Made by a program: the position numbers and the translations under genes. This document shows positions 7,372 through 63,501 of a stretch of DNA of 64,000 nt, piece after piece; positions within the stretch are counted from its first letter, which is position 1; each line of letters opens with the position of its first letter. The stretch covers positions 210 to 64,209 of the forward strand of contig JAYRIM010000017.1 of the NCBI GenBank assembly GCA_041906785.1, in the 5' to 3' direction. The stretch is from Candidatus Levyibacteriota bacterium (lineage in GTDB: Bacteria; Patescibacteriota; Microgenomatia; Levybacterales; UBA12049). The notes under the pieces were generated by a model. It worked only from the letters and a program-made list of their open reading frames with translations. It searched no databases and was not told the origin of the DNA.

Positions 7372-7381
7372 ATACGAATTA

Positions 7382-7801
7382 CTACGAATGTAATCCTAAT
7401 CTATCCGAATCAGGCAGATTAAGAATCCTCTTATATTCTAGGCTACTTCCATAGAAATTAACAAGAATACCTAGCTCGAGACTGGTTGCATGCAAATATG
7501 CCTTTATCTGCTTATAATCATTTTTTGTAAATATGGGTTTTACTTTTAATTCAACAACTATTTTTTCATATAAAAGAAAATCTAAATAATATTTTCCAAT
7601 CCCCTCACCATCAATTTTTAGATCCACCATAATTTCCCTCTTGAAAGGAATTCTATATTTACGCAGTTTTACCTCGACGGCACGTTGATAATATTTCTCT
7701 TGGTACCTATTACCTAATTCATTATGAACTTCAAAAAAGATTCCTGTTATTATGTAACTCAACTCGGGATAAAGCACTTTTTTATCAATATTTGGATTCA
7801 T
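7382..7801 (-). CDS. GxxExxY family protein (PD-(D/E)XK-like 'IVS-type' protein)
   Basis: 139 aa. The family hallmark GxxExxY is present as YPELSYIITGIFFEVHNELG, followed by DFLLYEKIVVELK and GILVNF motifs. The gene is bounded by ATTCGGAT/ATCCGAAT inverted motifs. Confidence 0.8.
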   Translation of the reverse strand: MNPNIDKKVLYPELSYIITGIFFEVHNELGNRYQEKYYQRAVEVKLRKYRIPFKREIMVDLKIDGEGIGKYYLDFLLYEKIVVELKVKPIFTKNDYKQIKAYLHATSLELGILVNFYGSSLEYKRILNLPDSDRLGLHS

Positions 7802-7829
7802 TCGGATGTAATTTGTAGGAATTCGGATA

Positions 7830-8441
7830 TCAATAAACTGACCTTCCTTCTAAAGCTCTCGTTAATGTACTACTATCAGCATATTCTAAATCAGCACCAA
7901 TAGGCAAACCACGCCCAATTCTCGTAATTTTGAGATTTGAGTTTTGAGATTTGAGATTTTTTGCAATATACATAGCAGTTGCTTCACCTTCCATTGTCGG
8001 ATTCGTCGCCAATATAACTTCATTGACTCTTTGACTCCCTGTCTCTCTGACTCTCTGTATTAACTGTCCAATATAAATCTCATCAGGACCAATATTATTT
8101 AATGGATCGATTTTCCCATGCAGCACATGATATACTCCCTTATAATGACCGCTTTTTTCTAGAGCGAGCACATCTAACGGCTGTTCTACGACACAAATAG
8201 TAGTTTTATCTCGTTGTGAATCACTGCAAATTGAACACGGATCCATTTCATCTACTGAATAACAAGTAGAACATATAACGGTATTTTGTTTTAACTTTTG
8301 AACTGCAGAAGCAAATGAATCGAGCTCATGCTGTGGCACATGCAATAGGTAAAAAGTCAACCGTTGTGCAGATTTCGGTCCGATACCAGGCAATCTTTCA
8401 AATGATTCAATTGTGTTTTGTATTGCTTTAGGAATTTTCAT
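7830..8441 (-). CDS. recR: Recombination protein RecR
   Basis: HhH (LPGIGPKSAQRL), C4 zinc finger (CSTCYSVDEMDPCSIC) and Toprim (ILATNPTMEGEATAMY). Confidence 0.95.
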   Translation of the reverse strand: MKIPKAIQNTIESFERLPGIGPKSAQRLTFYLLHVPQHELDSFASAVQKLKQNTVICSTCYSVDEMDPCSICSDSQRDKTTICVVEQPLDVLALEKSGHYKGVYHVLHGKIDPLNNIGPDEIYIGQLIQRVRETGSQRVNEVILATNPTMEGEATAMYIAKNLKSQNSNLKITRIGRGLPIGADLEYADSSTLTRALEGRSVY

Positions 8442-10498: not shown

Positions 10499-12118
10499 TT
10501 ACGACTTCAGTACTACTTCAACCTTTATAGTATTTCCAGTAAGAACTTTACATGCTTCTTCGAGAATAGCACGTGTTTTTGCTTGATCTAACCGTTCTTT
10601 GTGAAACGTATAAGCAGTTTCAATAACTAATGTTTTTTTATCAAATTGTTTTATCATACATCCACGTAAAACCCCCGCAATAGTATGATTGTGCTTTTTC
10701 ATTTCTCCGATAAGCGCTTGCCAGAAGCTCCCCAACCATTCTGCTGTAATCTCTGTATTTGAAGTTTGTAATAAATCGATTGATGGTTTCACATCTCCTG
10801 CTTTTTGTTCATCTGTTGCTATTTTTTCTTCACCATATAACGCCTTTACCCGCGCCAAATCCCCAAGTTGTTTTCTCATGCTCGCCACTGTAACTCCGTT
10901 ACTAGAAGGTTTGCTAATAGTTACCTTCGTAGTCTCTGTAACTTCGACCTTTTCCGTTTCATGTAAAGTTGTATAATCAATAATTGCTAATTCTAAAGGC
11001 AGCTGCGGCACAACTGCATACTTCATCTCCTGTATCACTCTACCCAATAAATCAAGCAAAACTTTTATTTGTTCAATAGGTAATTCTGCATTCTGAATTC
11101 TAGATTCTGAACTCTGTAAGACTCCAACTTTTACTAATAACAGGCTATGCAACGTGTCGAACAACTGTTCTGTAAAAGTTTTTATGTCTACACCCTCAGC
11201 CACGACTTGTTCGATACGTTTTATTCCTTCTTTAGTATCCTTTTTCTGCAAACTTTCAATAATACTTAATACTTGATATTTGATACTTGATACCTTATAT
11301 CGTTTTTCTAGAAGATCAAGCGTTATATGTTTCTCTCCCATCGAGACTAATTCTTCGAGAATCTTATGAGCATCACGAAATCCTCCATCTGCCAAATGGA
11401 CAATTGATTCAATAGCAGCTTCATCAATATCCAATTTCTCATTCTCTGCAATTCGTTTGAAAGAGCGGGCAATCTCTTCTTTTGTGGCAGGAGAAAACTG
11501 TACTTGAAAACATCGAGAGATAATCGTTGCAGGTACCTTTTGCAATTCTGTCGTACAAAGAATAAACATCGCATGAGCTGGAGGCTCTTCTAGGGTTTTT
11601 AAAAGTGCATTAAATGCCTCAGTAGTAAGCATGTGAACTTCATCTATGATATATATTTTTTTTCGAGCTGAGAGTGGAGAGAGTTTTATTTTTTCCCGTA
11701 AATCCCGAATCTCATCAATCCCTCGATTCGATGCTGCATCTATTTCAAGAACATCCAAATTCGCACCGTTTGTTATAGAAATACATTGCTCACATGCATT
11801 ACACGGCTCCAATCGGTTGTCAGTTGTGGGTTGTGAGTTATCAGTTAACTCTTCAGAAGACTTTTTATTTTTGAGTTTTAATTTTGAGTTTTGACTTTTG
11901 AATTTTGAATTGTTTTCACAATTCACAACCTTCGCAACAATTCTCGCCGTAGATGTTTTTCCTAAACCTTTCGGACCAGTGAAGAGAAAAGCATGGGGTG
12001 GTTCCGGTAAAGATAAAACAGCTGTTAATGTCTTTCTAATATATTCACTATCTAAGTCATCTATTTTTTGTGGACGATATTTTCTGTAATAAACCATACT
12101 ATGAAAATTAAAAATCAA
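10499..12118 (-). CDS. dnaX: DNA polymerase III subunit gamma/tau
   Basis: Walker A (GPKGLGKTS), zinc module (C...PCNACEQC), IYIIDEVHML, SRC motif (SRCFQ). A roughly 33-aa low-complexity insert (NSKFKSQNSKLKLKNKKSSEE...) splits the Zn module. Confidence 0.9.
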   Translation of the reverse strand: MIFNFHSMVYYRKYRPQKIDDLDSEYIRKTLTAVLSLPEPPHAFLFTGPKGLGKTSTARIVAKVVNCENNSKFKSQNSKLKLKNKKSSEELTDNSQPTTDNRLEPCNACEQCISITNGANLDVLEIDAASNRGIDEIRDLREKIKLSPLSARKKIYIIDEVHMLTTEAFNALLKTLEEPPAHAMFILCTTELQKVPATIISRCFQVQFSPATKEEIARSFKRIAENEKLDIDEAAIESIVHLADGGFRDAHKILEELVSMGEKHITLDLLEKRYKVSSIKYQVLSIIESLQKKDTKEGIKRIEQVVAEGVDIKTFTEQLFDTLHSLLLVKVGVLQSSESRIQNAELPIEQIKVLLDLLGRVIQEMKYAVVPQLPLELAIIDYTTLHETEKVEVTETTKVTISKPSSNGVTVASMRKQLGDLARVKALYGEEKIATDEQKAGDVKPSIDLLQTSNTEITAEWLGSFWQALIGEMKKHNHTIAGVLRGCMIKQFDKKTLVIETAYTFHKERLDQAKTRAILEEACKVLTGNTIKVEVVLKS

Positions 12119-12198
12119 AATTCAAAAGCGTTTGAGGAAAAGAAGAGTCTTTAACTTTTTACTTGAAATTTTGACTTTTGACTTTTAACTTTTGACTT

Positions 12199-12591
12199 TT
12201 ATTCATGGTGTATTCCTAGTAAGTGCATCATTGAATGCCTTATTAACTCATCTATTTTTTCATCTACTAATACTTCATCCCTCGCTGCTTCTACAAGAAC
12301 TTGAGGATAAGAAATAATAATATCTCCAAGCCGGGTAATTGTAGTATCCTGGGGCATAACTGTTGCCTCACCTTCGCCTAAGGGAAATGATAAGACATTG
12401 GTTGTTTTATCGAGATTACGATATTTTTTATTTAAAGCCTTCATTTTCCGATCCCCGACCACAGCTAAAGAAACTTCAACAGCTGTTGAAACACTATTCT
12501 CACTCAGCACAGAAAGTACTGTTTTCTTCATCCTTTTCCTGTTTACTTTATATCTGCTCTCAACAAAAATGAGAACTTTAGAAGAATTCAT
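12199..12591 (-). CDS. ybeY: rRNA maturation endoribonuclease YbeY
   Basis: C-terminal metal-binding H-x-x-x-H-x-x-x-x-x-H motif (HSMMHLLGIHHE). About 130 aa. Confidence 0.8.
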   Translation of the reverse strand: MNSSKVLIFVESRYKVNRKRMKKTVLSVLSENSVSTAVEVSLAVVGDRKMKALNKKYRNLDKTTNVLSFPLGEGEATVMPQDTTITRLGDIIISYPQVLVEAARDEVLVDEKIDELIRHSMMHLLGIHHE

Positions 12592-12894: not shown

Positions 12895-12978
12895 GGAAAG
12901 AACCAAAAGAGACAAAAGAGCCATAAGAGCCAGAGGTAATCACATTTGTCTCATTTGGCTCCTTGGTCTCCTCTGGAA
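12895..12978 (-). repeat. Imperfect hairpin made of 9-nt periodic CTC(N)T(N)TGG / CCA(N)A(N)GAG words in the rpsU 5' leader (copy 1 of 2)
   Basis: Left arm ccaaaagag-acaaaagag-ccataagag-ccagagg. Right arm catttgtct-catttggct-ccttggtct-cctctgg. The same word family recurs at 31741-31850 in the glyA leader. Confidence 0.5.
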
Positions 12979-13506: not shown

Positions 13507-13615
13507 AATATAAAATTGTTATATTGCTATAGTGTTTTATTGTTAAGTTAAATTCCTTCCCCCAAGAGAGAAGGTCAGGATGAGGAAACAATAGAGCAAT
13601 AAAACAATATAACAA
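13507..13615. repeat. Inverted-repeat pair of about 28 nt (TTGTTATATTGCTATAGTGTTTTATTG // CAATAGAGCAATAAAACAATATAACAA) enclosing a 45-nt spacer
   Basis: Visible by reverse-complement reading. Sits between the DHH phosphoesterase stop and the HIT start. Same architecture as the IR pairs that bound the four-helix-bundle cassettes, but with no cargo. Confidence 0.5.
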
Positions 13616-14635
13616 TTACTGATAGAGTTTTTCAAGCACTTTTATTATTTGATCTAAAGATAAAGTCGTGGGTACCATTTTCGGATTTTTAACACTTCCA
13701 TTTAATAGCATTTTTTTACTGACATGAAGAAACCAAGTCGCCCCAGCATCCATCTTTTTTAATTGCTCATACGCAAGAGTCAAATCAATTCCTTGTGAGA
13801 TTTCCGCCTTTGACCCCTTTGGCTCTTCTGTCTCATATATCCCCTCTGCTCTATTTGGAAGTGTTTTAATCGATACATGACCTCTTCTCGGATCTTTTCT
13901 AATAACTAATACATATCCTTTCTTCTGTGCTAACTTTACGACCGACTCATTCGCACTTAACAAACCTATTGCTTTTCCATACTTTGTCTTAAATTCAATA
14001 GCATTTCCTGCTTCTTCTCCGTCAATTTTTGATTTTTGCTCTCGGCCTGAGCTCGAGCCGAAGGCATTTTTAATTTTTAATTCTCTTTCTGCCCATACTT
14101 TATTTTCAAAGTATGATAATAAATAATCTAAATTCGTACAGCCGAATTCTACATAATAGTCATCCTCCCCAGGTTTTTTATACTGTAACCCTTCGTTAAT
14201 ACCGAAAAGTGAAAAATCATGGTAATCAGCATCTGCTTGGGGACGAAAAACTTCTTGGAAATGGTCATACGCTACGACAAGGGATACAATTCGTGAAATT
14301 GCTTCTACTGCTTGCTCTTTTAATGGCTGTTCTGATACCTGACGCTGGCTTTGGACGAAATCCCAAGCACGCTTAGCACCGCAAGTGTTTTGATCAGGTG
14401 TTTGATGATGATCCAATGGTCCTAGACCAGTGTCTACATGGATAATCTCTGTATTCCCAATAGTAAGTACAGGCTCGGATTCAAATTCGGGATGATTTTT
14501 AACTCTATCGCTTCGCAGACCAGCAGGTACAAATTCTATATCTGCCTTTTCCCAGCCAGGTAAGAAACGTTTTAATACCCAAACTGATGTAATCGCATCA
14601 AGGTCTGGCGACATATGAGTGACAATAATTTTCAT
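13616..14635 (-). CDS. DHH-family phosphoesterase (NrnA-like)
   Basis: N-terminal HMSPDLDAITS (DHH motif I/II) and GLGPLDHHQ (DHH motif III). Confidence 0.75.
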   Translation of the reverse strand: MKIIVTHMSPDLDAITSVWVLKRFLPGWEKADIEFVPAGLRSDRVKNHPEFESEPVLTIGNTEIIHVDTGLGPLDHHQTPDQNTCGAKRAWDFVQSQRQVSEQPLKEQAVEAISRIVSLVVAYDHFQEVFRPQADADYHDFSLFGINEGLQYKKPGEDDYYVEFGCTNLDYLLSYFENKVWAERELKIKNAFGSSSGREQKSKIDGEEAGNAIEFKTKYGKAIGLLSANESVVKLAQKKGYVLVIRKDPRRGHVSIKTLPNRAEGIYETEEPKGSKAEISQGIDLTLAYEQLKKMDAGATWFLHVSKKMLLNGSVKNPKMVPTTLSLDQIIKVLEKLYQ

Positions 14636-14861
14636 AATGGCTTTAAGTATACCATACCATTATTTTTAGTTTAAACTCCTATTTCTAAAGCATCAAAATT
14701 AAAAATGAAAAGATAAAAGTTAAAAATTGGATTTTATATTTTTTAATTTTGAATTGTAACTTTTCATTTTTCACTTTTAACTTTTAATTCCTTCCTAGAA
14801 CTATTTTTACTTGACAAATGATTAATGATACGGGATCATAAATATATACCAAAGTTTTTTT

Positions 14862-15362: not shown

Positions 15363-17702
15363 TTATCCTCGTTGATTAAATGCAGCTCCTATACTATCTG
15401 CGTTTGCAGCTCCAAATGCTCCAAGCGCTCCAGCCCCAAGAGCATATGGCATTCCACCAGTCTGGAATGCCGTGTATAAGCCAAGCGCAGCCAGCAATCC
15501 CCAAAGGAATTTCGTCTTAACATCCAGAAGTACGCCTGCTTGTTCTAATGCAGCGATTCGGCCTTTGATAGCTTTATTATTCTCAACGGCACCCATCACC
15601 ATAGTGCTATACTTATCAGCTATTAACTTCCATTCATGATCTTTCAGAGTTAGTGGTCCACTTCCCATCATAAGGAATCCACCCAGCTTATCTCTCATTG
15701 TTCTTTCAGACACAAATGACATAAATAATTTATTTCGATATTGTTCTTGCATACCTGTTAGAACCTCACGAAGTCTTTGTTGCGTCTTTTCATCGTATTG
15801 AGTTAATTGAACATTTCTCCACCAATCCGCATCAGCAGTCGTATCAACTCCCTGTGGAGCCACACCTAAATCACGTAACATGAGACGCTGTAAAGCTAAA
15901 TCACCATCTTTAGAACTTGGATCACCATTATATGCAAGATATAGAATATCAGTTCGAATGTTATCATAACGAACTGTTTTACTTCTCGTTTCATCATTAA
16001 GAAGAACCCATCTATCGCGAATAACCTCTCCTAATGTCTCCATATTTTTCGCTTTTTCCTCTTCACCTTTCTTTCTCGCTTCTTCTGCCTGGTCTTTTAT
16101 ATATGCATCTTGGATTTTATTCATGTCATCAATTCTGGCATCTAAAACATCCAAGACAGATTCAGAAAGAACATTATCAAGTCCATCAATTAAATCTGTT
16201 TCTTGCTCAAGCCTTCTTGCCCTACTTGATTTTAAGTTTTTCTCTGCTTCATCCTTTCTCGCTTTTATCGTCTCATCTGCTGCCTTCTTCGTCTGAGCAG
16301 CTTCAACAGCTTTTGCTGTATCTCCTGCAAATGAACTTACATATGCACCTCTTTGATCTTTTGTGGTATTTGTCGCAGCCATGATCGTATCGTAATCTTG
16401 GGCTTTACCAGTAAATTCCTGTTCTGCAGCATTTTTCGCATCATCATCTGCTCCTTTTCGGATTTCCTCGTTCTTTATTTTATCTCTTGCAGCTTTCTTG
16501 TCATCAATTAACTTTTTTAAACGAACTTCCTCTAATTGTGTAGCTCTTCTATCACCTCTCTGTATTTCCTCAAGCCTTTTTTCTAAATCTGTAACCTCTT
16601 TCTCTGCATTTCTATATTTTGTAATAAGCTTTATATCCTCATCCTTTAAACCTTTATTCTCAAATGCTTGAGCGCGGAGACCATGAACGACATCTTCAAA
16701 TGTCGCACCTTCTTCTAATTTCTTCTTAATACTAGCTGTAAAATTCTCTACAGTAAGATCTACTTCATTTCCGGTAGCTGGATCTATTCCTTTCACTTCA
16801 ACAGGTTTCACTCCGAAAGTCATCGCTGCTTTCGCTATAGCAGCAGCTTTTTCATCTAATGTCTTATCTGCTTCTTTTTTATCTTCCTCTGCTTTTATAC
16901 TAGCTTCATCTTTCTTTTCTGCAGTGAGACGTCCAGCTGCTGTTTTCATCTCTGCCATTTTTTCAAGAAGTTTCTGTCTCACTGCCGGATCACTCATTAA
17001 ATATACGTCCACAAAAGTACGTTGAGCATTTTGGTCTCTTACCTCGTTTAGCTGCTTACCATACAATTGTTGAATTGCTGGAGTGTTAATGAGAAGATCT
17101 AAACTTTGATCACGAAGCTCATAAAACTCATCTTCTGTCATCTTACCATCTTTTGTTGGAGTTTCTAATGCAGTTTCTAATAAAACAACTAGATAATCCC
17201 GTCCTGTTTTTTCAGCTTCAGCTTGTGCCCTCTGGACGATATCTGTATATGTGAGAACTTTATTCAGATTTTCTACTTGCTTCTCTCCTGCTTTAATTTT
17301 ATCCTTTAACTCTTTCACCTCATCGGGTGTTAACCCCTCCTCATCGATAACTGGTTCATCATTAACTTTTTTAACTGTCCCATCCGCTTCGGTTTTCACT
17401 CTACCCCCACCGAAAGACGCCTTCATCTCTTTCTGGGCTTTATCATCAAATGTGGCTTCTTTATCTGCCTTTTCCTTTCTATTCTTCGCTCGAGCTGCTT
17501 CAATCTCCGCTTTTCCATCTCGAGGAGCATCTGGCTTTCTCCGTGATCTGATGCGCTCTGCTGCTTCGAGGCTCTCCTGAATCTGGCGGTCTCGCTGTAA
17601 TCTTTGGAGCAATGGACGATCTGCCTGTCTATCTGTATGATAAACAGCTTCTGCATGAGTAATTCTCGCTGAATCGGGTGACGCTGGTGCTGCTGCTGCC
17701 AT
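15363..17702 (-). CDS. Large K/E-rich coiled-coil protein (779 aa) with a C-terminal membrane anchor
   Basis: Hundreds of residues of heptad-like charged sequence. The C-terminus FLWGLLAALGLYTAFQTGGMPYALGAGALGAFGAA is hydrophobic and Gly-zipper-like. Confidence 0.5.
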   Translation of the reverse strand: MAAAAPASPDSARITHAEAVYHTDRQADRPLLQRLQRDRQIQESLEAAERIRSRRKPDAPRDGKAEIEAARAKNRKEKADKEATFDDKAQKEMKASFGGGRVKTEADGTVKKVNDEPVIDEEGLTPDEVKELKDKIKAGEKQVENLNKVLTYTDIVQRAQAEAEKTGRDYLVVLLETALETPTKDGKMTEDEFYELRDQSLDLLINTPAIQQLYGKQLNEVRDQNAQRTFVDVYLMSDPAVRQKLLEKMAEMKTAAGRLTAEKKDEASIKAEEDKKEADKTLDEKAAAIAKAAMTFGVKPVEVKGIDPATGNEVDLTVENFTASIKKKLEEGATFEDVVHGLRAQAFENKGLKDEDIKLITKYRNAEKEVTDLEKRLEEIQRGDRRATQLEEVRLKKLIDDKKAARDKIKNEEIRKGADDDAKNAAEQEFTGKAQDYDTIMAATNTTKDQRGAYVSSFAGDTAKAVEAAQTKKAADETIKARKDEAEKNLKSSRARRLEQETDLIDGLDNVLSESVLDVLDARIDDMNKIQDAYIKDQAEEARKKGEEEKAKNMETLGEVIRDRWVLLNDETRSKTVRYDNIRTDILYLAYNGDPSSKDGDLALQRLMLRDLGVAPQGVDTTADADWWRNVQLTQYDEKTQQRLREVLTGMQEQYRNKLFMSFVSERTMRDKLGGFLMMGSGPLTLKDHEWKLIADKYSTMVMGAVENNKAIKGRIAALEQAGVLLDVKTKFLWGLLAALGLYTAFQTGGMPYALGAGALGAFGAANADSIGAAFNQRG

Positions 17703-18565: not shown

Positions 18566-20323
18566 TCAAGAGCTCATCTTCTTTAATTCTTCAATTGCTT
18601 CAGAGAGTGTAAGAAGTTTCGTATTGCTTTCCCTTCTTACTTTCCATTCAACTTTATCTTGCGTTTTAGTACTGATCACCAATCTAACAGGAATACCTAT
18701 CAAATCAGCATCTGCAAATTTTTCTCCAGCGCCGACATTCTCTCTATCATCATACAAAACCTCAATCCCAGCAGCTTGTAACTTTTCATAAATATCTTCT
18801 GTTTCAGATTTGAGATTTGAATATTGAGTTTTGAGATTTATCAAATGAACCTGGTATGGCGCAACTGTTTCCGGCCAGATTATTCCTCGATCATCATGGA
18901 ATTTCTCTACAATAACGCCCATTAAACGTGAAGGTCCTATTCCATATGAACCCATATATACTTCTTTTTTCTCTCCATTTTCGTCTGTATAGTAATAATT
19001 AATTGCTTTTGTAAATTTCGTATTTAAAGGGAAAATATTACCAACTTCTGCCGCACGGAAAACCTCATACCTTTCACCTGTTTCAGGATATATGTCGCCA
19101 TCTTTTGCAATTTTAAAATCATAAAATTTTTCAGGAAGCTGGATATCTCGACCCCAATTTACGTTAACCGTATGATAATCTGTTTTGTTTGCACCACATT
19201 CGAAATTTTTACGGTTCGCTGTAGACTCATCAAAAAATACTTTAACATCTGAAGAAAGATTTAAAACGCCTGCATACCCTACTTCAGCACCTGTTACTTT
19301 TTTAACAACATCTGCAGAAGCCAATTTGATCGCTTTACATCCAATAATTTTAATTAATTTTTCTTCATTAATATCGTATCCTCCTCGAACAGCAGCCGCG
19401 ACAACATTACCCGTATCTGTCTCAAACAGTAACGTCTTAGTAGTTTTTTCAACAGGGATTTTTAGAAAAGCTGCAAGTTCTTCAACACCCACAATCCCTA
19501 CGCCTAACACATCTTCTCTATCCTTCATTTCTTCATCAGTATCATTAAGAGCCGGTGCCTGAGAAGGAGCAATCTCTCTATTAAAAGCTATGTTTTTTGA
19601 TTTTACATAGAAAACAGTATCTTCACCCGTTTCACAACGAGTTTGAAATTCATGTGAGAAGTTTTTCGTAAAATCTCCTCCGGATGCTAACGTTATAAAT
19701 GTATCCTTACCTATACCAACACGACGGAATACGTTCATATACACTTCTTTCGCTTTTTCATAATAATCTAATAAATCTTCCTCAGACGTATGGAAACTAT
19801 ATAAATCTTTCATACGGAACTCTCGACCGCGCATTAAACCTGATTTAGCGCGTGCTTCATTTCGGAATTTAGTCTGGATTTGATAAAAAGCGAACGGAAA
19901 ATCTTTATAACTTGTATTAAACTCTTTTGCCAAAGGAGTTACCATGTCTTCATGTGTACAACTCAGAATATATTCATTTGTGTTTTTCGATTGGGAAAGT
20001 TTATTCGCACCTGATGTTTTCATTAAAACGTCAACAGTTTCCAACCGTCCTGTTTGCTCCCATATTTCCTTAGGCGCAAGTGACGTCATGAGAATTTCAG
20101 TACCGATCTTATCCATTTCTTCACGAACGATTTGTTCAATTTTATTTAAAACGCGCAATCCCAGATGAAGAAATGTATAAACACCAGCCATTTCTTGGTG
20201 AATAAATCCAGACTTCTGCAATAATGTAGCATTTATAGACTCGAATTCTTTTGCGTTTTTTCTCGTTTTTATATACAGTTTCGAATATCTCATATGAATA
20301 ATTTCTTGTGTTAAGTATAGCAA
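18566..20323 (-). CDS. proS: Prolyl-tRNA synthetase (bacterial type with INS editing domain)
   Basis: Class II motifs. Editing-domain signatures (KTLLFETD, GAEVGYAGV). C-terminal anticodon-binding domain. The true start is probably MRYSK at about 20293. Confidence 0.95.
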   Translation of the reverse strand: MLYLTQEIIHMRYSKLYIKTRKNAKEFESINATLLQKSGFIHQEMAGVYTFLHLGLRVLNKIEQIVREEMDKIGTEILMTSLAPKEIWEQTGRLETVDVLMKTSGANKLSQSKNTNEYILSCTHEDMVTPLAKEFNTSYKDFPFAFYQIQTKFRNEARAKSGLMRGREFRMKDLYSFHTSEEDLLDYYEKAKEVYMNVFRRVGIGKDTFITLASGGDFTKNFSHEFQTRCETGEDTVFYVKSKNIAFNREIAPSQAPALNDTDEEMKDREDVLGVGIVGVEELAAFLKIPVEKTTKTLLFETDTGNVVAAAVRGGYDINEEKLIKIIGCKAIKLASADVVKKVTGAEVGYAGVLNLSSDVKVFFDESTANRKNFECGANKTDYHTVNVNWGRDIQLPEKFYDFKIAKDGDIYPETGERYEVFRAAEVGNIFPLNTKFTKAINYYYTDENGEKKEVYMGSYGIGPSRLMGVIVEKFHDDRGIIWPETVAPYQVHLINLKTQYSNLKSETEDIYEKLQAAGIEVLYDDRENVGAGEKFADADLIGIPVRLVISTKTQDKVEWKVRRESNTKLLTLSEAIEELKKMSS

Positions 20324-20766: not shown

Positions 20767-20810
20767 AAAAAAACCGCCCTTAATCCCGATCTCATCGGAA
20801 CAAGGACGGA
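20767..20810 (-). terminator. Intrinsic-terminator-like hairpin plus U7 tract abutting the start codon of the 20311..20766 ORF
   Basis: On the minus strand, ccgtcctt-[gttccgatgagatcgggatt]-aagggcgg is followed by ttttttt, then gtgcat-ATG. Confidence 0.5.
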
Positions 20811-21112
20811 AATAATTCTGTAACTCAAATTTTTGACTTTTAACTTTTGAGCTTTGAATTAATTCGTGGTACCACCTTGCTTTCGCTTGCTACAAAAAAT
20901 CCACCTTTCGGTGGAACAACAGAACTATAGCAATTGCTTATTTCTGCGCTCCGTTGCCGACACGCTTTATCGTATTTCTTGTCCTCCGTAGTTTTAACGA
21001 AGGACGGATACGGTTGACTTCCGTATTGCTCATCGCAATCAGCTCATTTGGCGGGAAACCAAACTTCTTGTCCTCCAAAGCTTTAGCGAAGGAGGAATAA
21101 CGCTTTATTAAT

Positions 21113-21148
21113 GAATATAATAAAACAACTAGCTAGCCTTGTCAATAA
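21113..21148 (-). promoter_or_regulatory. Near-consensus sigma70-type promoter (TTGACA-N17-TATTAT) firing into the structured leader
   Basis: The minus-strand sequence is cttatTGACAaggctagctagttgtttTATTATattc, located just after the gnd stop. Confidence 0.5.
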
Positions 21149-21154
21149 GTTTTT

Positions 21155-25941: not shown

Positions 25942-25995
25942 TCTTCGGTCGCCTTAATTTTGATGTTGGCGGCCCTTCGTCCGCCGAAGCTTTAA
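25921..25995. repeat. Cluster of GC-rich small hairpins with a CCTTCG/CGAAGG and GAAGCTTTA core
   Basis: cgaaggcactcttcg, ggcggcccttcgtccgcc and ccgccgaagctttaagcgaaggcgga. The last one is about 80% identical to cctccaaagctttagcgaaggagga at 21075-21100. Confidence 0.45.
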
Positions 25996-26168
25996 GCGAA
26001 GGCGGATTTCGCTGTAGATCAATTACAGTCGTAGAATAACAAAAAGAGGCCAGCACCTTCTTGACGCTATAATGACAGCTAGCTAACAAGATGCTTACAA
26101 AACATTGTGCTTGTAACTTGTAATGCAAGAGATTTTACGTAATACGTTATACGCTACACGTTTCACGA

Positions 26169-27397: not shown

Positions 27398-27428
27398 ATA
27401 GCTTAGAGCATAGAGCATAGAGCTTAGG
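27398..27428. repeat. Left inverted repeat of four-helix-bundle cassette 1 (tagcttagagcatagagcatagagcttaggg)
   Basis: Reverse-complement partner at 27794-27824 (ccctatgccctaagctctctgctcttagcta). Confidence 0.7.
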
Positions 27429-27783
27429 GTTTTAAAATGGATGCTTTAAAAGCTCTTATTTTTTTAGATAATATTTCTGCCTTGTTATATAAATCTTTAT
27501 ATGTCTGATGAGAGATATAGTGTAACTCTTTTGCAACAAATAAATGTGATACTGCTTCATATAAAGACTTAACTGAAACATCAAGAAAATATGCAAATTC
27601 TTTCTTTGAAGAGCTCCCACTTCCTTCCGAAATATTTGCAGCAATAGAAGTTGCTGCCCTTCTTAATTGATCAACTAATGAGAAGAATTCCTCACGGGGA
27701 AATGTTTTTGTAATTATATAAATATCTTTAATGAACAATACAGAATCTTTCCAAATATCCAAAGTTTCAAATCTAAATGCCAT
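27424..27783 (-). CDS. Four-helix-bundle protein (TIGR02436, '23S rRNA intervening-sequence protein' family)
   Basis: DQLRRAATSIAANISEG hallmark. About 120 aa. Confidence 0.85.
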   Translation of the reverse strand: MAFRFETLDIWKDSVLFIKDIYIITKTFPREEFFSLVDQLRRAATSIAANISEGSGSSSKKEFAYFLDVSVKSLYEAVSHLFVAKELHYISHQTYKDLYNKAEILSKKIRAFKASILKP

Positions 27784-27793
27784 ATATAATCTA

Positions 27794-27824
27794 CCCTATG
27801 CCCTAAGCTCTCTGCTCTTAGCTA
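27794..27824. repeat. Right inverted repeat of four-helix-bundle cassette 1; overlaps the frr stop codon
   Basis: See the left arm at 27398-27428. Confidence 0.7.
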
Positions 27825-31716: not shown

Positions 31717-31740
31717 ATGTATTTTAAGAATTCAATAGGG

Positions 31741-31850
31741 TAACCCAGGGAAGGGAAAGAAGAGACAGATGAGCCAAATGGGTCAAAGGTCATATTATAG
31801 TTTGCTTATCACCTTTGTCTCCTCTGGCTCCTTGGTTCCTTTTGACTCTT
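31741..31850 (-). repeat. Second copy of the 9-nt-periodic hairpin element, in the glyA 5' leader
   Basis: gagacagatgagccaaatgg ... cacctttgtctcctctggctccttggttcc. Shares the tggctccttggt and tctcctctgg words with 12940-12975. Confidence 0.5.
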
Positions 31851-31854
31851 CGAT

Positions 31855-32981: not shown

Positions 32982-33569
32982 TTACTGAAAAGCTAGATAC
33001 TTCTTCATCTTTTTCTCAAAATCTTCAAACGAATAGTAATATTCTGCCTTAATGCCAAACTTTCTTGCTGCTTTTACATTCTCTTTAAAATCATCCCAAA
33101 AAATCACTTCATCTTTATCTAATTTCTGATCATCAATGATATACTGAAAAAACTTGTGATCTGGTTTCAAATGGCCTATATGTCCTGAACCATAAAATTT
33201 ATGAACGACTTTCCCAAGCCCCACCACATCCCGAAGATATTCTGTTCTATATTTCTCATTATTTGTACCCACATAAATGGTAATTCCTTTTTTTCTAAGT
33301 TTTTCTATATATGAAAGTAATTCCTGATTTAATTCTCGTTCTCCTTCAAACCATTCTTTTAAAAGTTCATCAACACTACCTTCCCAACCCCATTCATGCA
33401 TATATTTTGGAAGCTCTTCTTTCAAATCAGCTTTTCCGACCAAACATTCTTGAAATACCCCCTCAAAAAACTTCTTCATCACATCTTCAGACAAACCGAG
33501 CCGTTTACTGAAATATTCCTTCCGAAAAACTAACACTCCATCTGCATCAAAAATAATTGTTTTTATCAT
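32982..33569 (-). CDS. HAD-superfamily hydrolase
   Basis: Motif I IIFDADGVLV. Motif IV at about WDDF. Confidence 0.8.
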   Translation of the reverse strand: MIKTIIFDADGVLVFRKEYFSKRLGLSEDVMKKFFEGVFQECLVGKADLKEELPKYMHEWGWEGSVDELLKEWFEGERELNQELLSYIEKLRKKGITIYVGTNNEKYRTEYLRDVVGLGKVVHKFYGSGHIGHLKPDHKFFQYIIDDQKLDKDEVIFWDDFKENVKAARKFGIKAEYYYSFEDFEKKMKKYLAFQ

Positions 33570-33582
33570 AAATAAGTATTAT

Positions 33583-33604
33583 GTAGTAAGTAGTATGTAT
33601 TATG
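33583..33604. repeat. Left inverted repeat of four-helix-bundle cassette 2 (gtagtaagtagtatgtattatg), built from 7-nt AGTAKTW words
   Basis: Near-perfect 22-nt reverse complement of 33973-33994 (cataatacatactacttactac). Confidence 0.75.
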
Positions 33605-33968
33605 AATTATTTTTTAAACTTTTTAGTAATCCATTAATAAGTTTACTTACTAAAATAGTTCTCTCAGCCAATTCCTGGAATTTTTCATTTGAGATATACT
33701 CTAAATCTCGAGCAATTAAGAGCTGGTTCTGTAGTTCTGTTAATGATCCTAAAGCCATATAAAGAAACTGCGCTTTTTCTTTTTTCGTTTGTCGTGAAAA
33801 CCCTTCTGCGATATTACTTGTTATAGAAATAACACAGCGACGCATTTGGTCTACTAAGCCGAACTTCTCATAATTTGGAAAAGTAAATAATATCTTATGA
33901 ACTTCAAGCACTATTTTGTGTCCTTCCTTCCAAGCATTCAGATCTGTAAACGATCTTATTTTATTCAT
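33600..33968 (-). CDS. Four-helix-bundle protein (TIGR02436 family), copy 2
   Basis: DQMRRCVISITSNIAEG hallmark. Confidence 0.85.
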   Translation of the reverse strand: MNKIRSFTDLNAWKEGHKIVLEVHKILFTFPNYEKFGLVDQMRRCVISITSNIAEGFSRQTKKEKAQFLYMALGSLTELQNQLLIARDLEYISNEKFQELAERTILVSKLINGLLKSLKNNS

Positions 33969-33972
33969 ACTA

Positions 33973-33994
33973 CATAATACATACTACTTACTAC
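33973..33994. repeat. Right inverted repeat of four-helix-bundle cassette 2; overlaps the last codons and stop of the downstream HIT gene
   Basis: See 33583-33604. Confidence 0.75.
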
Positions 33995-34445
33995 TAAAGT
34001 ATTTCTTCAATCTATCAGCATACACTTTCCTCTCCTCTGGTGTCGTGGAGATTTTATGCAATATATTTCCGTACAAATCGTCATTTTCATACCGTGGAAA
34101 GACATGCATATGATAATGAAATGCATGTTGATTACCTGCGGGTTCGTTATGCTGCGCTGTAGATATTCCATCACACATATATGCCTCTTTCAAAGCAAAA
34201 GCAACTTTTTTCACTGCATCATAAATATGATGACCAATCTCGTTTGGCAGATCATAGATGTTTTCGAAGTGCTGATTCGGAACGATAATGACATGTCCAA
34301 GATTATTTTTAATGAAAAAAGATGAGATAAACGCGGTAACCCACTGATTGGCGTAAACAATATCAGATCGTTTAATCAATGTTTGTGGAATTTCTAAACC
34401 TGCAACAGCAGGACAAATCGGACATTTGTATCCTTGTTCATTCAT
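33984..34445 (-). CDS. HIT family protein (second paralog, Cys-containing N-terminus)
   Basis: HYHMHVFPR histidine triad. CPICPA N-terminus. Confidence 0.8.
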   Translation of the reverse strand: MNEQGYKCPICPAVAGLEIPQTLIKRSDIVYANQWVTAFISSFFIKNNLGHVIIVPNQHFENIYDLPNEIGHHIYDAVKKVAFALKEAYMCDGISTAQHNEPAGNQHAFHYHMHVFPRYENDDLYGNILHKISTTPEERKVYADRLKKYFSSK

Positions 34446-44351: not shown

Positions 44352-44413
44352 CTAAAATAACTATTTTCCTCTTCTGTCTCCTCTGTCCCATCTGGCTTTT
44401 TGGACCCTTTAAG

Positions 44414-52883: not shown

Positions 52884-54602
52884 TTATTTAAGGGGTTCGG
52901 AGCCGTAACCAAGTTTAACAAATGGTATAACACACCAATTTCTTCTCAATTTATCAGCTAGTACAGGTAAAGCGACTGAGTACTGTTCTATCAATCGAGA
53001 CGAAATAGAATAATAGGGATAATATAATATCGCCATCCGTTTCCGAAGGTTATTAATACCTATACCTACGCTAAAATTTTCTACACCTTTTGATCGTAAG
53101 TATTGAAAAAACTCATCATCCGTTAATAATCCCCATTTTATGGGTAAATCATCCCACTCGATTTTAGCAATTTCTCTCCACTCTTCTTCAGAAAGAGGAT
53201 CACGAACGATTTCTTGAACGATAATTGGTAATGCTGCACCTGTAAATTGTTGTGGATCAGTAAAATTACCAGAAGAATCTACCACTCTACCTTCTTTTCT
53301 ATTTTTCCGTATCAAGCTAGCAGAGAGTTCTATGCTCCCAGGAAGATTTGCTTCTTCATATGAAAAAACAGTAAATGTTGGGATTTTATAGGGAGGATAC
53401 CCACCTTCTGAAACACGAATACATTCTTCGTCATGCTCACCATATGGATAGGTATGAACTGGGTTGTCAGATTCTAGCTTACCAGTTTTCTGTTTTTCTG
53501 TTTGCTCAACTGATTGACTGATGACTGACTCACTGCTTGCTGACAGCTGAGAACTGAAAACTGATGACTGATCAGGATGCATATTATTTAAGAACCCACT
53601 AAATGTACTTGTTAATAACAACATAAATCGAGTTTCCAACTCCTCTTCTGCTTGTTTGTTTCGTTCTTCCAAATATGGATAAACATTTTTAATTCTGCGT
53701 GCTATAGATGGATGCAGTTGCTCTTTCATGTCAGCAATTGCTTTCCAGAACGCTTTCGCAGAGTTTATATAATTTCTTCTCCAATCAAGTATAAATGCAC
53801 GTTTTTCAAATAGTTCCTTCACTTTTTCATCTCGTGCAATCTCTTCTGTTGAAATAATTTTTCCTTCTTTGACAAATCGTTCGATCGTATCAGATAAAAA
53901 TTCCTTCCCATTCTTCATTACATAATCGAAGACCCTATCGGTTTCTAAACCCATATACATATATCCAGTATGCGGATCAAAACTTATTTGGATTGCATGA
54001 ATTCGTTTTTCTTTTCCATATGTATTCTCCACAAAAAGCTTTGTCGCTTTTGCCATCTGCAACTTATGTGATACATCTGCAAATAATCCGGCATCTTGAG
54101 GATCACGGCCTTTTAATTGTTCTTCCTGGAAACGAGCTGCACAGCCGAGATGACTGTCAAATACTTCAACAATAGAATCGAGGTTAAAATCTGTATATGC
54201 GCGTTGAATATACCGAGCGAAGTCTGACTCTTCTTTTAGTTTCAATTGTCCATCTGTTCCTCGAACAAATTCCCGCAGAATACCGCCAGGAACCTTAATA
54301 CTACTTCCTATACCTGCTGATGCACCATGCATCAATACACGTAGTACACGGCCATCAATACAGAGATTCCAAAATATTTTAACCGGTAATAAACTATTTG
54401 CGAATTTCTTAATTTTTATATAGTCTTCAGAAGAAACTTCTTCCGCTCTTGCATTATTATCTTTTATAAAATCTTTGAAAAAATGACGGAGATAATCATA
54501 ATTCTCCTTAGCACGTGGATTTGGAAGAAGTTTATTATATGCCTCAAGCCGATCTATAAGCTGATCTATTTGTTTAAATAATGTTGACCCACCAGTAAGC
54601 AT
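52884..54602 (-). CDS. Hypothetical 572-aa protein (island gene C) with a beta-carbonic-anhydrase-like CxDxR...HxxC signature
   Basis: Cys81-Ile-Asp-Gly-Arg85 (NLCIDGRV), then about 70 aa on, IVEVFDSH151LGC154AA. The spacing and flanking beta-strand are consistent with the beta-CA zinc site. The rest of the protein is unassignable. Confidence 0.4.
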   Translation of the reverse strand: MLTGGSTLFKQIDQLIDRLEAYNKLLPNPRAKENYDYLRHFFKDFIKDNNARAEEVSSEDYIKIKKFANSLLPVKIFWNLCIDGRVLRVLMHGASAGIGSSIKVPGGILREFVRGTDGQLKLKEESDFARYIQRAYTDFNLDSIVEVFDSHLGCAARFQEEQLKGRDPQDAGLFADVSHKLQMAKATKLFVENTYGKEKRIHAIQISFDPHTGYMYMGLETDRVFDYVMKNGKEFLSDTIERFVKEGKIISTEEIARDEKVKELFEKRAFILDWRRNYINSAKAFWKAIADMKEQLHPSIARRIKNVYPYLEERNKQAEEELETRFMLLLTSTFSGFLNNMHPDQSSVFSSQLSASSESVISQSVEQTEKQKTGKLESDNPVHTYPYGEHDEECIRVSEGGYPPYKIPTFTVFSYEEANLPGSIELSASLIRKNRKEGRVVDSSGNFTDPQQFTGAALPIIVQEIVRDPLSEEEWREIAKIEWDDLPIKWGLLTDDEFFQYLRSKGVENFSVGIGINNLRKRMAILYYPYYSISSRLIEQYSVALPVLADKLRRNWCVIPFVKLGYGSEPLK

Positions 54603-56540: not shown

Positions 56541-57941
56541 ATGAAAGAATATCTCGTAACGCTTATTGTTCTCTATCTTCGTTTCTTTGCAGTTAAAACA
56601 CTAAAAAATCACCGACCTACAATCATCGGTATTACTGGTACAGCAGGAAAATCTTCAGCCCGCGATATGATCAACGGGATATTAAAAGACCACTATGCGA
56701 CAAAAGTCGTGCATGGAAACTCTGAGACAGGCATTCCTCTCGGAATCATGGGTATTAAACCGAAGAGTCTGGGATTTGAAACATTTACAAAGAGTGTTTT
56801 TGATTGGCTAACTATTATTTTTCGCGCACCCTTCTCTACGCACCACCTGAAAGGTGTCAAATATCTGATCGTAGAAATGGGAATCGATGATCCTTTTCCA
56901 CCAAAAAATATGGAGTATCTCCTCTCAATAGTAAAACCCGATATCAGTATTTTTCTTAATGTGGGTGCGATGCATACCATGCAATTTGAAAAATTACTTC
57001 CAAATTCTTCAAAAGGAACAAGAAGTTGGTTTAATAATGATCAGGAAAAAACTGAATATCTTATCGGACGAATAGCTGATGAAAAAGCGAAAATCATTAC
57101 TGAATCTGGGTGTAAAATCGGTATTTATAATGCTGATAATTCCTACATCTTAGAAACTATCCGTCAATATGCAAATAAAGCTACAACCCTTCTAACGTTC
57201 GGCAGTAAACCCAACAATTCATTAACATATAAAAAATATGCAGTTGATCTACATGGTACAACCTTTACATTTGAGTACGCTAACGGCGAAATTATCATAC
57301 AAATTTTAGGCTATCTTCTACCAGAAACCTATAGAGAGACTATCGCTGCAGCTATTCTAGCCGGATTACAAACAGGATTAACTATAAAACAAATAATTGA
57401 GTCTCTCGAAAAGAATTTCTCATTACCGAAAGGGAGAGCGACATTACTAAAAGGCATACATGATAGTATACTTATCGATTCTTCATATAATGCCTCGCGG
57501 ATAGCAGTAGAAGGTATGTTAGGACTCGTCTCTGTGTTAAAAAAAGAAACGAAACGACCTACTGTATTCATTATGGGTGATATGCGGGAACTTGGTAGTG
57601 AGACACAATACGAACATGAAACAGTGGCAGAGAAAATTATTGGAACTGTAGATTATCTCTATTTGGTAGGACCTCAAACCAGAAGGTATGTGCTTCCGGT
57701 TATTCAACAACGTGAAGACACATTTAGAGAAATACGCTGGTTTGAATCATCAACACGCGCTGGAGATCATGTAAAAGAAACGCTTCCCGAACACGCTATT
57801 GTATTAATAAAAGGTTCCCAAAATACAATATTTCTCGAAGAAGCAGTGAAATTATTACTAAATGATAAAAGTGATGAATCTAAACTTTGTCGACAAGAAG
57901 ACTTTTGGATGAAGAGAAAAAAAGTGATCAGTAATCAGTAG
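56541..57941 (+). CDS. murF: Mur ligase family protein, probably UDP-MurNAc-tripeptide--D-Ala-D-Ala ligase
   Basis: IIGITGTAGKSS P-loop, DSSYNAS, and a Mur ligase C-terminal domain. Its stop codon lies inside the left IR of the adjacent cassette. Confidence 0.75.
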   Translation: MKEYLVTLIVLYLRFFAVKTLKNHRPTIIGITGTAGKSSARDMINGILKDHYATKVVHGNSETGIPLGIMGIKPKSLGFETFTKSVFDWLTIIFRAPFSTHHLKGVKYLIVEMGIDDPFPPKNMEYLLSIVKPDISIFLNVGAMHTMQFEKLLPNSSKGTRSWFNNDQEKTEYLIGRIADEKAKIITESGCKIGIYNADNSYILETIRQYANKATTLLTFGSKPNNSLTYKKYAVDLHGTTFTFEYANGEIIIQILGYLLPETYRETIAAAILAGLQTGLTIKQIIESLEKNFSLPKGRATLLKGIHDSILIDSSYNASRIAVEGMLGLVSVLKKETKRPTVFIMGDMRELGSETQYEHETVAEKIIGTVDYLYLVGPQTRRYVLPVIQQREDTFREIRWFESSTRAGDHVKETLPEHAIVLIKGSQNTIFLEEAVKLLLNDKSDESKLCRQEDFWMKRKKVISNQ

Positions 57942-57952
57942 TCAGTTATCAG
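57926..57952. repeat. Left inverted repeat of four-helix-bundle cassette 3 (gatcagtaatcagtagtcagttatcag); overlaps the murF stop
   Basis: Partner at 58290-58319 (ctgataactgattaccgactactgataact). Confidence 0.7.
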
Positions 57953-58280
57953 CTAAGGAACGCGAAAAAGCATTTATTTGCCTACCTAAAAATTTAAAAT
58001 CTTCTTGAAGGAGATCCGTATTAATTCCATATACAATTGCCACAACTTGAAGTAATGCAACCGTTTCATTTGCAGAACCTGAAGCAATTTGGAGATAATT
58101 TTGAAATTGCTTAGTTGACCTGCAGTACCCTTCAGTAATATTTGCAGCAACTGAAATTGCCGCTCGACGTATTTGATCAATCAGCGCAAAGTCTTTAAGT
58201 AACTGAGGATTGTTACGAGTTAAAATATATACTTCTGCGACTAACGCTAGAGCTTTCTTGTATATCTTCAACTTTTCCAT
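57942..58280 (-). CDS. Four-helix-bundle protein (TIGR02436 family), copy 3
   Basis: DQIRRAAISVAANITEG hallmark. Confidence 0.85.
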   Translation of the reverse strand: MEKLKIYKKALALVAEVYILTRNNPQLLKDFALIDQIRRAAISVAANITEGYCRSTKQFQNYLQIASGSANETVALLQVVAIVYGINTDLLQEDFKFLGRQINAFSRSLADN

Positions 58281-58289
58281 CTGTTTTCA

Positions 58290-58319
58290 CTGATAACTGA
58301 TTACCGACTACTGATAACT
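58290..58319. repeat. Right inverted repeat of four-helix-bundle cassette 3; reaches the stop codon of 58318..59424
   Basis: See 57926-57952. Confidence 0.7.
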
Positions 58320-63485: not shown

Positions 63486-63501
63486 GCAAAAGGATTAAAC
63501 G

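Follow-up and report, generated by a model that had tools for sequence, protein, structure and literature searches.

Heptanucleotide arrays in a Levyibacteriota contig

A 64,000-nucleotide stretch of contig JAYRIM010000017.1 from a Candidatus Levyibacteriota bacterium (positions 210 to 64,209 of the forward strand; hereafter, the window) contains tandem arrays of seven-nucleotide units, which are found both in the spacers between genes and in frame inside recR, proS and dnaX. These arrays have three to nine units each, are A/T-rich, are built from many unit types and are roughly tenfold over-represented. We consider it likely that they constitute a heptanucleotide simple-repeat system of the kind represented by short tandemly repeated repetitive (STRR) sequences and long simple sequence repeats (LSSRs), in which slippage would generate the arrays, homogenisation would keep their units alike, and selection would confine them to spacers and permissive loops.

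When period-7 arrays were called with Tandem Repeats Finder, 33 were detected in the window, compared with 1.8 in dinucleotide-preserving shuffles. Period-14 arrays (8 versus 0.25) and period-21 arrays (2 versus 0) are also in excess, and counts at all other periods are close to the shuffle expectation. A scan for near-mismatch-free periodicity returns only three period-7 runs. With gene calls based on open reading frames (ORFs), arrays cover 8.4% of intergenic bases versus 0.93% of coding bases, which is a difference of about ninefold. All of these statistics are based on the 64-kb window and about 0.55 Mb of loci from relatives, none of which is a complete genome.

The units are diverse, with 24 distinct types among 32 arrays. 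Sense-strand units include ATCTCAA in recR, AATCTCA in proS, TTCAAAA, GTCAAAA and CTCAAAA in dnaX, and GTCAAAA in spacers, and plus-strand units include ATACTAA, CTAAACG, AATTCTG, GTTGTGA, AGCATAG, CTATTAG, ACTGATA and AGCAAGT. In several places, the short spacer between two co-directional genes is almost wholly a single array, which sometimes provides a stop or start codon.

The closest named proteins belong to Candidatus Roizmanbacteria and "Patescibacteria group" bacteria, and a scan of GTDB species representatives with DnaX gave no match above 49% identity. Syntenic DNA was obtained from seven relatives, L081 to L087. DnaX proteins of L081 to L085 are 57-62% identical to that of the window, L086 is the closest relative (prolyl-tRNA synthetase, ProRS, 81% identical; ~75% nucleotide identity in genes), and L087 is a Roizmanbacteria-type genome. 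A further sample comprised 80 metagenomic RecR loci (446 kb), and 80 dnaX loci of other phyla (1.16 Mb), taken from the GTDB scan with DnaX, served as the out-of-clade control. Period-7 arrays occur at 5.2 per 10 kb in the window, 2.6-8.2 in L081 to L086, 1.1 in L087 and 2.94 in the RecR loci (0 to 12.8 among loci of at least 5 kb), versus 0.54 in the control. The trait is lineage-wide but patchy. One control locus from an uncultured bacterium (L010, CAZQNI010000008.1; 37% GC) has 7.1 period-7 arrays per 10 kb, with AATTGAA, TTTAAAA and other units, and is either another lineage with the trait or a misfiled relative from the candidate phyla radiation (CPR). All-against-all megablast of 88 loci found no pair above 88% identity save a single 79-nucleotide match, and a search of the available literature found no report of heptamer or tandem repeats for CPR, Patescibacteria, Microgenomates or Roizmanbacteria.

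Arrays in RecR and ProRS

An initial annotation of this DNA drew attention to a 16-mer common to recR and proS, to the peptides that it encodes, and to the improbability of such sharing by chance. On these points it is borne out. The sequence TTGAGTTTTGAGATTT occurs exactly at 7937-7952 in recR and at 18824-18839 in proS, these being its only two copies in the window, and both sit within intact minus-strand ORFs. The encoded peptides are KNLKSQNSNLK and NLKTQYSNLKSE. When up to two mismatches are allowed, the window has 6 matches, whereas 0.23 are expected and all 100 shuffles have fewer than 6. The features themselves are real, although their positions had been given about 10 nucleotides off: the recR array spans 7929-7959 and the proS array 18802-18839. 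What had been overlooked is that the period is 7, and that the arrays named were a small subset of the 33, many of which have unrelated units. The 16-mer is shared because the two arrays have the same unit.

At the coding sites, nucleotide-level identity at lag 7 is 0.72-0.97, versus about 0.1-0.5 at lags 3, 6 and 9. Because the periodicity is 7 nucleotides, and not 3 or 21, neither codon bias nor protein-level selection can create the arrays. Seven-residue peptide repeats arise because three 7-nucleotide units are read through all three frames, which also explains the peptides rich in Lys, Ser, Gln and Asn. Chance, codon bias or selection for a linker of such composition is consequently an explanation to which we give next to no credence. 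The A-rich codon usage does make Lys, Asn, Ser and Gln codons alike, but the numbers of 16-mer matches (6 versus 0.23) and of arrays (33 versus 1.8) and the dominance of lag 7 over lags 3, 6 and 9 contradict it, and arrays occur in non-coding DNA as well. Lys/Ser/Gln codon bias, which the initial annotation itself had raised as an alternative, is excluded by the lag-7 identities, and we rejected protein-level heptad selection on the same ground, namely a period of 7 rather than 21 nucleotides.

The recR gene (7830..8441, minus strand) encodes a protein of 203 residues that contains ...AKNLKSQNSNLKITR and matches the solved RecR chain 3vdp at E=2e-63. Its in-frame array (7929..7959, minus strand; sense unit ATCTCAA x4.4, called by Tandem Repeats Finder) encodes NLKSQNSNLK and corresponds to the first of two hot spots, site A. 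Compared with 3vdp, the array region is just two residues longer, and it does not differ in length from the first five clade orthologues examined. ATCTCAA/AACTCAA arrays are found at the orthologous site of L087 (31/36 nucleotides identical) and of L096, L104, L110 and L118, and in three of these a later GC-rich palindromic insertion splits the array. Since an ATCTCAA array is common to distant relatives and there is no gain in length, the recR array is old rather than newly inserted. The initial annotation had proposed an insertion in recR and had named shared ancestry as evidence to the contrary; the array is indeed ancestral within the lineage, and that proposal falls.

To locate such arrays along the protein, 62 RecR orthologues were scanned codon by codon in 35-nucleotide windows with a threshold of lag-7 identity of at least 0.6. 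Only 1.4% of 12,072 windows reach this threshold, all of them at two sites. Site A, the one noted originally, covers residues ~157-167 and peaks at 21% of species, site B covers residues ~124-133 and peaks at 16%, and everywhere else in RecR the value is 0% of species at every position. Units at site A vary by species and include ATCTCAA, AGTTAAA, perfect ATTTCAA x4.5, ATATCAA, AAAATCC and GAATTAC; orthologous RecR sites carry diverged arrays in register.

Site B of the window (8024..8057, minus strand) is a period-8 array of the GAGAGTCA type, in which every unit has 8 nucleotides (lag-8 identity 0.75, lag-7 identity 0.03). Relatives have 7-nucleotide units such as GCATAGA and CAGAGGA at this site (L081 5084-5112, L083 4965-4994). 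It looks as if a unit variant longer by one nucleotide has spread across the whole array of the window.

The proS gene (18566..20293, minus strand) encodes 575 residues from a homology-supported start, and its product is 100% identical to P0121, matches solved ProRS at E = 9e-109 and contains ...INLKTQYSNLKSETE. The in-frame array (18802..18839, minus strand; sense AATCTCA/AAACTCA) encodes NLKTQYSNLKSE with no net change in length, as its residues match up column by column with Pseudomonas ProRS and with the majority of 35 orthologues from the clade. In L086, the sequence at this site is different, 12 residues longer and without an array. This part of ProRS is thus a loop that evolves fast, and here the array of the window took the place of an earlier sequence without net gain. 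The orthologues P0123 and P0124 retain N-V or N-L at the position of the Asn-Leu-Lys codons of this site.

These observations suggest different ages for the two arrays. The recR array is an old resident of site A, and the proS array is a younger re-patterning of a variable loop in the anticodon-binding domain. The latter probably started from Asn-Leu-Lys codons (AAT CTC AAA) like those at the recR site, which would give the shared 16-mer; two arrays with one unit, both of which could nucleate on these codons, explain the 16-mer most simply, and pairs of arrays with an identical unit are not rare in the window. Ectopic copying by gene conversion or template switching could instead link the two arrays, which are 10.9 kb apart on the same strand, but we regard this as improbable. 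The exact 16-mer does span a canonical and a variant unit, one array is old and the other young, and the window has more pairs of identical units than composition predicts, namely 8 among 32 arrays versus 2.4 expected (P=0.006). However, recR/proS identity ends after 16 nucleotides, the Asn-Leu-Lys codons at both sites allow the same unit to nucleate (P0123 and P0124 have N-V or N-L there), and the frequency of unit pairs with at most one mismatch is hardly higher within genomes (0.117) than between genomes (0.103). The same two frequencies give no support to a repertoire of units particular to each genome, which would have pointed to copying in trans.

Arrays in DnaX

The dnaX gene (10499..12097, minus strand) encodes 532 residues from the homology-supported start MVYYRKYRPQ and is 100% identical to P0001. 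The first Cys of its zinc module (TGT 11920-11918) lies 38 residues from the second (TGT 11803-11801), versus 8 residues in E. coli gamma/tau, and the module therefore has about 30 extra residues. An insert between these cysteines, as initially annotated, is real, but only its first half is the TTTTGAx array that had been described (11862..11911, minus strand; sense TTCAAAA/GTCAAAA/CTCAAAA). The second half is another array (11813..11848, minus strand; identified by Tandem Repeats Finder at 11816-11839 and from the sequence) with sense units TAACTGA, TAACTCA, CAACCCA, CAACTGA and CAACCGA, and these variants avoid the stop codons that a perfect array would make.

Across the clade, this insert is hypervariable. 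Its length ranges continuously from 0 to ~50 residues over 40 orthologues, and many versions contain peptides with a period of seven residues, e.g., KLKIEKG-KLKINAK. In an AlphaFold model of DnaX (mean predicted local distance difference test score, pLDDT, 80.6), the insert is predicted as a protruding helix along which confidence drops, and then as a stretch with pLDDT <50. The zinc-module arrays of the window reside in this part of DnaX, which is hypervariable clade-wide.

Two further sites in DnaX carry arrays. Site 2 (11082..11116, minus strand) consists of five CAGAATT-type units that encode QSSESRIQNAEL; in the model it falls in a loop that connects two predicted helices. Site 3 (11262..11293, minus strand) consists of GTATCAA-type units that encode VSSIKYQVLSI inside a predicted helix. 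When 31 DnaX orthologues were subjected to the lag-7 analysis used for RecR, arrays were detected in the zinc insert in 7 species, at site 3 in 4 species and at site 2 in 5 species. Site 2 has five units in the same register in all species, and mean unit identity is 0.84 within species versus 0.68 between species. In L081 and L083 the array is a perfect CAGAATT x5, with 32 nucleotides identical between them; elsewhere in dnaX, these two relatives use the same codon for 47% of identical residues. The higher unit identity within than between species, the 8-nucleotide units of RecR site B and the shared perfect arrays are signatures of concerted evolution. Among the conserved proteins, arrays are confined to a few recurrent positions, namely RecR sites A and B, the zinc-module loop of DnaX, and DnaX sites 2 and 3. 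The units that different species have there are related or different, and the total length is often the same.

Origin of the arrays

The initial annotation suggested a mobile or slippage-prone simple repeat that tolerates in-frame insertion. Of this suggestion, a slippage-prone repeat tolerated in frame agrees with the anatomy, i.e., tandem heptamers with periodicity at the nucleotide level. Insertion, in contrast, applies to dnaX only, as there is no gain relative to clade orthologues in recR and no net change of length in proS. Mobility is not supported. If a simple repeat moved about and entered spacers and, in frame, genes, this could explain why one unit, along with its variant AAACTCA, is found in both recR and proS, and why the proS array is lacking in L086. 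In-frame insertion does occur in the clade, but what is inserted there, at RecR site A of L092, L099 and L115, is a GC-rich palindrome and not a heptamer array. Yet the arrays have no shared or conserved flanks, terminal repeats or target duplications, and they grade into coding sequence. The lengths of recR and proS equal those of array-free orthologues, and the dnaX loop, which alone varies, does so continuously. Moreover, the recR array is common to distant relatives and was split by later palindrome insertions in some of them, there are 24 unit types among 32 arrays, and orthologous sites are occupied in register by arrays of related or different units. We therefore view a mobile element as highly improbable.

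Under the slippage model that we favour, replication slippage or template switching on a 7-nucleotide register would create the arrays and homogenise them by concerted evolution. Selection would purge those that break the reading frame or the protein fold, so that arrays would survive in spacers and surface loops, and inside genes the survivors would be only those that preserve frame and length. During homogenisation, each unit position would be read as codon positions 1, 2 and 3. Because every unit position would occupy all codon positions, no site would be truly synonymous, and this can explain perfect arrays shared by ~60%-identical proteins without invoking a nucleic-acid function.

Several considerations weigh against this model. 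Slippage itself is something we infer, as the turnover that we see is between species only. A slip by one unit is a frameshift, which would be costly in essential genes and is awkward to reconcile with the long persistence of arrays, and the model gives no reason for a register of 7 nucleotides. The excess of identical-unit pairs noted above exceeds the expectation from composition, and CAGAATT, TAACTGA and AGTATTT recur across species at non-orthologous places, which hints at unit preferences or at a function. Finally, where the window has an array or hairpin in a spacer, its counterpart in L086 mostly has one too, built from unrelated units. Such retention at orthologous spacers through complete sequence turnover suggests that the intergenic arrays, at least, are selected and not merely tolerated.

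Intergenic arrays and bracketed genes

Intergenic arrays are of two kinds: single arrays, which have folding z scores of ~0 and thus no predicted structure, and inverted pairs of arrays, which form long, A/U-rich predicted hairpins. The initial annotation had reported one word family in three spacers, and arrays of related units are indeed present there, at 12104-12127 together with 12169-12200, at 14687-14789 and at 20831-20855. In the ybeY/dnaX spacer (12104..12200, minus strand), a GTCAAAA array at 12169-12200 has an inverted TTTTGAA/TTTTGAT partner at 12104-12127 (z -3.06), and the orthologous spacer of L086 has entirely different units and a folding z of -6.9. A divergent spacer (14687..14789, no strand assigned) contains an inverted pair of AAAATTA and CTTTTAA/ATTTTTA arrays (z -1.95). 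The third is a single GTCAAAA/GTTAAAA array (20831..20855, minus strand) inside a conserved 388-nucleotide non-coding region. Strong predicted folding is also found at 13507-13620 of the window (z -5.3), in the dnaX/ybaB spacer of L085 (z -7.7) and in the L086 spacer between the genes for ribosome recycling factor (RRF) and an M50 protein (z -5.3).

In many cases, an array ends 0-27 nucleotides ahead of a start codon. In L082, a perfect (AGTTATG)x5 array (17549-17586) fills the space from the stop codon of a signal-peptidase gene to the next gene; each unit includes an ATG, and the ATG start of the downstream gene is within the last unit. A search of metagenome contigs for the flank-gap-flank pattern around this array yielded 0 matches. 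In the window, an AGCAAGT x3.7 array starts 2 nucleotides past the 3' end of tRNA-Cys (63389-63462, plus strand; whole region 63389-63489).

Inverted arrays also bracket individual genes. We ranked 67 genes of the window by complementarity between their two flanks, and the top four are three genes of family PF05635 (23S rRNA intervening-sequence protein, Avd-like; Pfam E-values 2e-36, 4e-33 and 2e-23) and a PDDEXK_3 gene. Their flank scores are 39-46, versus a median of 15 and a next-best score of 21. The inverted repeats around these four genes are ~30 nucleotides each, and in the PF05635 cases they are heptamer arrays. The first PF05635 cassette (27400..27821, minus strand; gene 27424-27783) has inverted AGAGCAT-type arrays, the second (33573..33994, minus strand; gene 33600-33968) has a 22-nucleotide perfect inverted repeat of heptamer-type units, and the third (57923..58319, minus strand; gene 57942-58280) has inverted arrays of the AGTTATC/TAACTGA family. 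The bracketed PDDEXK_3 region is at 7372-7829. Folding of 33565-34000 predicts that the second cassette is closed by a 22-bp terminal stem.

These cassettes are located between protein genes (RRF/M50, HIT/next and others), and their positions differ between the window and L086. Where the window has the gene at 27424-27783, the orthologous spacer of L086 contains an array hairpin with no gene inside. A PF05635 gene of L086 is situated in a different spacer, one that in the window measures just 10 nucleotides. In relatives, similar bracketing is observed for PF05635, PDDEXK_3, TrpR-like and IS200-like genes and, in some species, for the whole of dnaX, with flank scores of 30-54 (arrays at L083 1430-1454 and 3194-3226, around L082 9904-9938, and at L157 1705-3348). 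The arrays around dnaX are long-range complementary 5' and 3' flanks, of the type that bracket rRNAs. No rRNA was found in the 64-kb window.

A resemblance exists to intervening sequences in 23S rRNA of Coxiella and Leptospira, in which an S23p ORF, likewise of PF05635, lies within a stem of flanking inverted repeats (PMC4990558). In our case, however, the cassettes are between protein genes and not inside 23S rRNA, the stems are made from heptamer arrays, and any excision by RNase III would be hypothetical.

Intergenic arrays, at least, might be cis-acting elements, an explanation that we regard as plausible though less likely than not, and that is compatible with an origin by slippage. Inverted pairs would act as stems for RNA processing (of the RNase III type), termination or stability that bracket genes, and single A/U-rich arrays before start codons would aid translation initiation. 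Consistent with such roles, inverted pairs fold far better than shuffles (z -3.06, -5.3, -6.9 and -7.7), the strongest flanking inverted repeats of the window belong to the three PF05635 genes and the PDDEXK_3 gene, similar bracketing occurs in relatives, and the cassette at 33565-34000 has its 22-bp terminal stem. A role in translation initiation has been proposed for TAACTGA repeats in Beggiatoaceae (PMC4679880), and many arrays end close to a start codon, although such proximity is nearly inevitable in spacers of 15-50 nucleotides. On the other hand, this explanation does not account for the in-frame arrays of recR, proS and dnaX, the great diversity of units argues against a sequence-specific binding factor, and single arrays are unstructured.

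A more speculative extension, which we think unlikely, is that the arrays are the material of a lineage-specific operon punctuation. Active copying or homogenisation on a 7-nucleotide register would keep arrays going at fixed positions, those in essential genes included, and inverted pairs would provide sequence-independent double-stranded RNA stems that bracket single genes. If so, the bracketed genes would be PF05635/Avd-like, PDDEXK_3 and TrpR-like genes and, in some species, dnaX, and the stems would be processing or stability signals, or else landing sites for small selfish gene cassettes. The arrangement would then be an analogue, in mRNA operons, of rRNA intervening sequences, and arrays inside genes would represent spill-over into permissive loops.

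Other dispersed elements

A GC-rich palindrome, CCTTCG..AAAGC..GGMGGAC, has three copies in spacers of the window (20981-21003, 21070-21092 and 25979-26002, minus strand) versus 0.01 expected. The same palindrome is present in frame at RecR site A of L092, L099 and L115, where it encodes peptides such as SSFAKASADKQ, and other GC-rich palindromes are present at this site in L096, L104, L110, L154 and L167. Rickettsia palindromic elements were reportedly found inserted in frame in protein genes by Ogata and colleagues in 2000. The GC-rich palindrome looks like a selfish insert of this style, in that the copies are dispersed in spacers and in frame in conserved proteins. Heptamer arrays differ from such elements in being direct repeats without fixed boundaries.

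Two of these palindromes, along with the array at 20831-20855, are contained in the 388-nucleotide non-coding region between two genes (20767-21154), which is partly 76% identical to L086 8598-8811. This region has no Rfam match even at E<=1, and may be an unrecognised RNA.

A second family of dispersed hairpins has arms that are period-9 arrays of the GGAGACCAA/GGAGCCAAA type and their complements. Representatives occur in spacers at 12897-12970, 31717-31854 and 44333-44413, and one is upstream of the gene for S21.

Relation to known repeat systems

The classical STRR sequences have the consensus units CCCCAGT, TTGGTCA and CAACAGT, and their hosts are cyanobacteria. They were reportedly described by Mazel and colleagues in 1990. 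Over-represented heptameric LSSRs occur in lineages that include Nostoc, Xanthomonas and Burkholderia, and polymerase slippage has been hypothesised as the origin of heptamer repeats, according to the summaries of Mrazek et al. 2007 given in PMC4692102 and PMC4679880. LSSRs and STRRs resemble the present arrays in having tandem 7-nucleotide units and in being scattered as many short arrays, most of them intergenic and often placed within operons. Both are traits of particular lineages with a patchy distribution, in which the length and sequence of arrays vary between related genomes while gene neighbours stay the same, and a slippage origin is hypothesised, and unproven, in both. In the window and the relatives' loci, units are arranged head to tail, and arrays are over-represented, dispersed and mainly intergenic. 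There are also differences. The host here belongs to the CPR/Microgenomates, many A/T-rich units are used compared with one to three G/C-rich consensus units in the systems so summarised, essential housekeeping proteins contain arrays at hot spots that recur, and inverted intergenic pairs are frequent. In view of the diverse A/T-rich units and non-cyanobacterial host, we rejected an assignment to STRR sequences in the strict sense; the arrays are of the same kind only.

TAACTGA direct repeats are present in marine Beggiatoaceae, cyanobacteria and Bacteroidetes, and are found upstream of start codons, with occasional in-frame copies (MacGregor 2015, PMC4679880). The unit itself recurs here at 53508-53572, 58289-58319, 57923-57952 (as the reverse complement) and dnaX 11813-11848, and at L084 11643-11662. 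The first of these (53508..53572, minus strand; AACTGAT x9, a rotation of TAACTGA) is, at 65 nucleotides, the longest array called by Tandem Repeats Finder in the window, and it is in frame in a 572-residue ORF with no Pfam match, where it encodes DQSSVFSSQLSASSESVISQSV. A further similarity is the small number of in-frame arrays in ORFs (PMC4679880). Another may be the placement of arrays just before start codons, where a Shine-Dalgarno sequence is often missing, but in the window the 0-27 nucleotides between array and start codon are nearly inevitable given such short spacers. However, in the Beggiatoaceae genome (BOGUAY), repeats of related heptamers are rare, whereas TAACTGA is one of more than 20 units here, and in-frame copies in that genome are mostly at protein ends or in hypothetical proteins, whereas here they are internal to RecR, ProRS and DnaX (PMC4679880). 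Rotations of TAACTGA account for only 3-4 of 32 arrays, and more than 20 other units are repeated; on this basis, we rejected a TAACTGA-type system proper.

Tandem repeats inside genes of Borgs reportedly have units that are multiples of three nucleotides. Borg tandem repeats evolve fast, occur in genes and between them, and add low-complexity or disordered segments to proteins (PMC9879509), in all of which they are similar to the heptamer arrays. With the 7-nucleotide unit of the present arrays, in contrast, a seven-residue peptide repeat results from all three frames, and a change by a single unit breaks the frame. Phase-variable contingency loci, formed by simple sequence repeats in Haemophilus and Neisseria, also have units within coding sequence that are not multiples of three (PMC2651432, PMC3315296). 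In the window, however, the arrays are short, occupy internal positions and lie in essential genes rather than in genes for surface or virulence factors, and an on/off switch would be lethal. We rejected a contingency locus as an explanation because the hosts are recR, proS and dnaX, whose essential functions a frameshift would abolish. The present case is set apart by its host lineage, by how diverse the units are, by the recurrent internal sites in essential proteins, and by the inverted pairs that bracket small genes.

Implications

Heptamer repeats have been noted since 1990 as an unexplained oddity of a few bacterial lineages. On a practical level, arrays inflate apparent "inserts" in CPR proteins, and may mislead alignment, gene calling and the assignment of start codons. 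The link between arrays and hairpins around small genes for Avd-like or intervening-sequence proteins points to a role in RNA processing or in cassette insertion.

The lineage also offers a natural experiment, in which dozens of species have different units at the same few codon-level positions of universal proteins. The arrays of RecR, DnaX and ProRS are a read-out of where arbitrary sequence with a seven-residue period is tolerated, and perfect arrays that are conserved at the nucleotide level across saturated synonymous divergence provide a test of concerted evolution versus selection on DNA or RNA.

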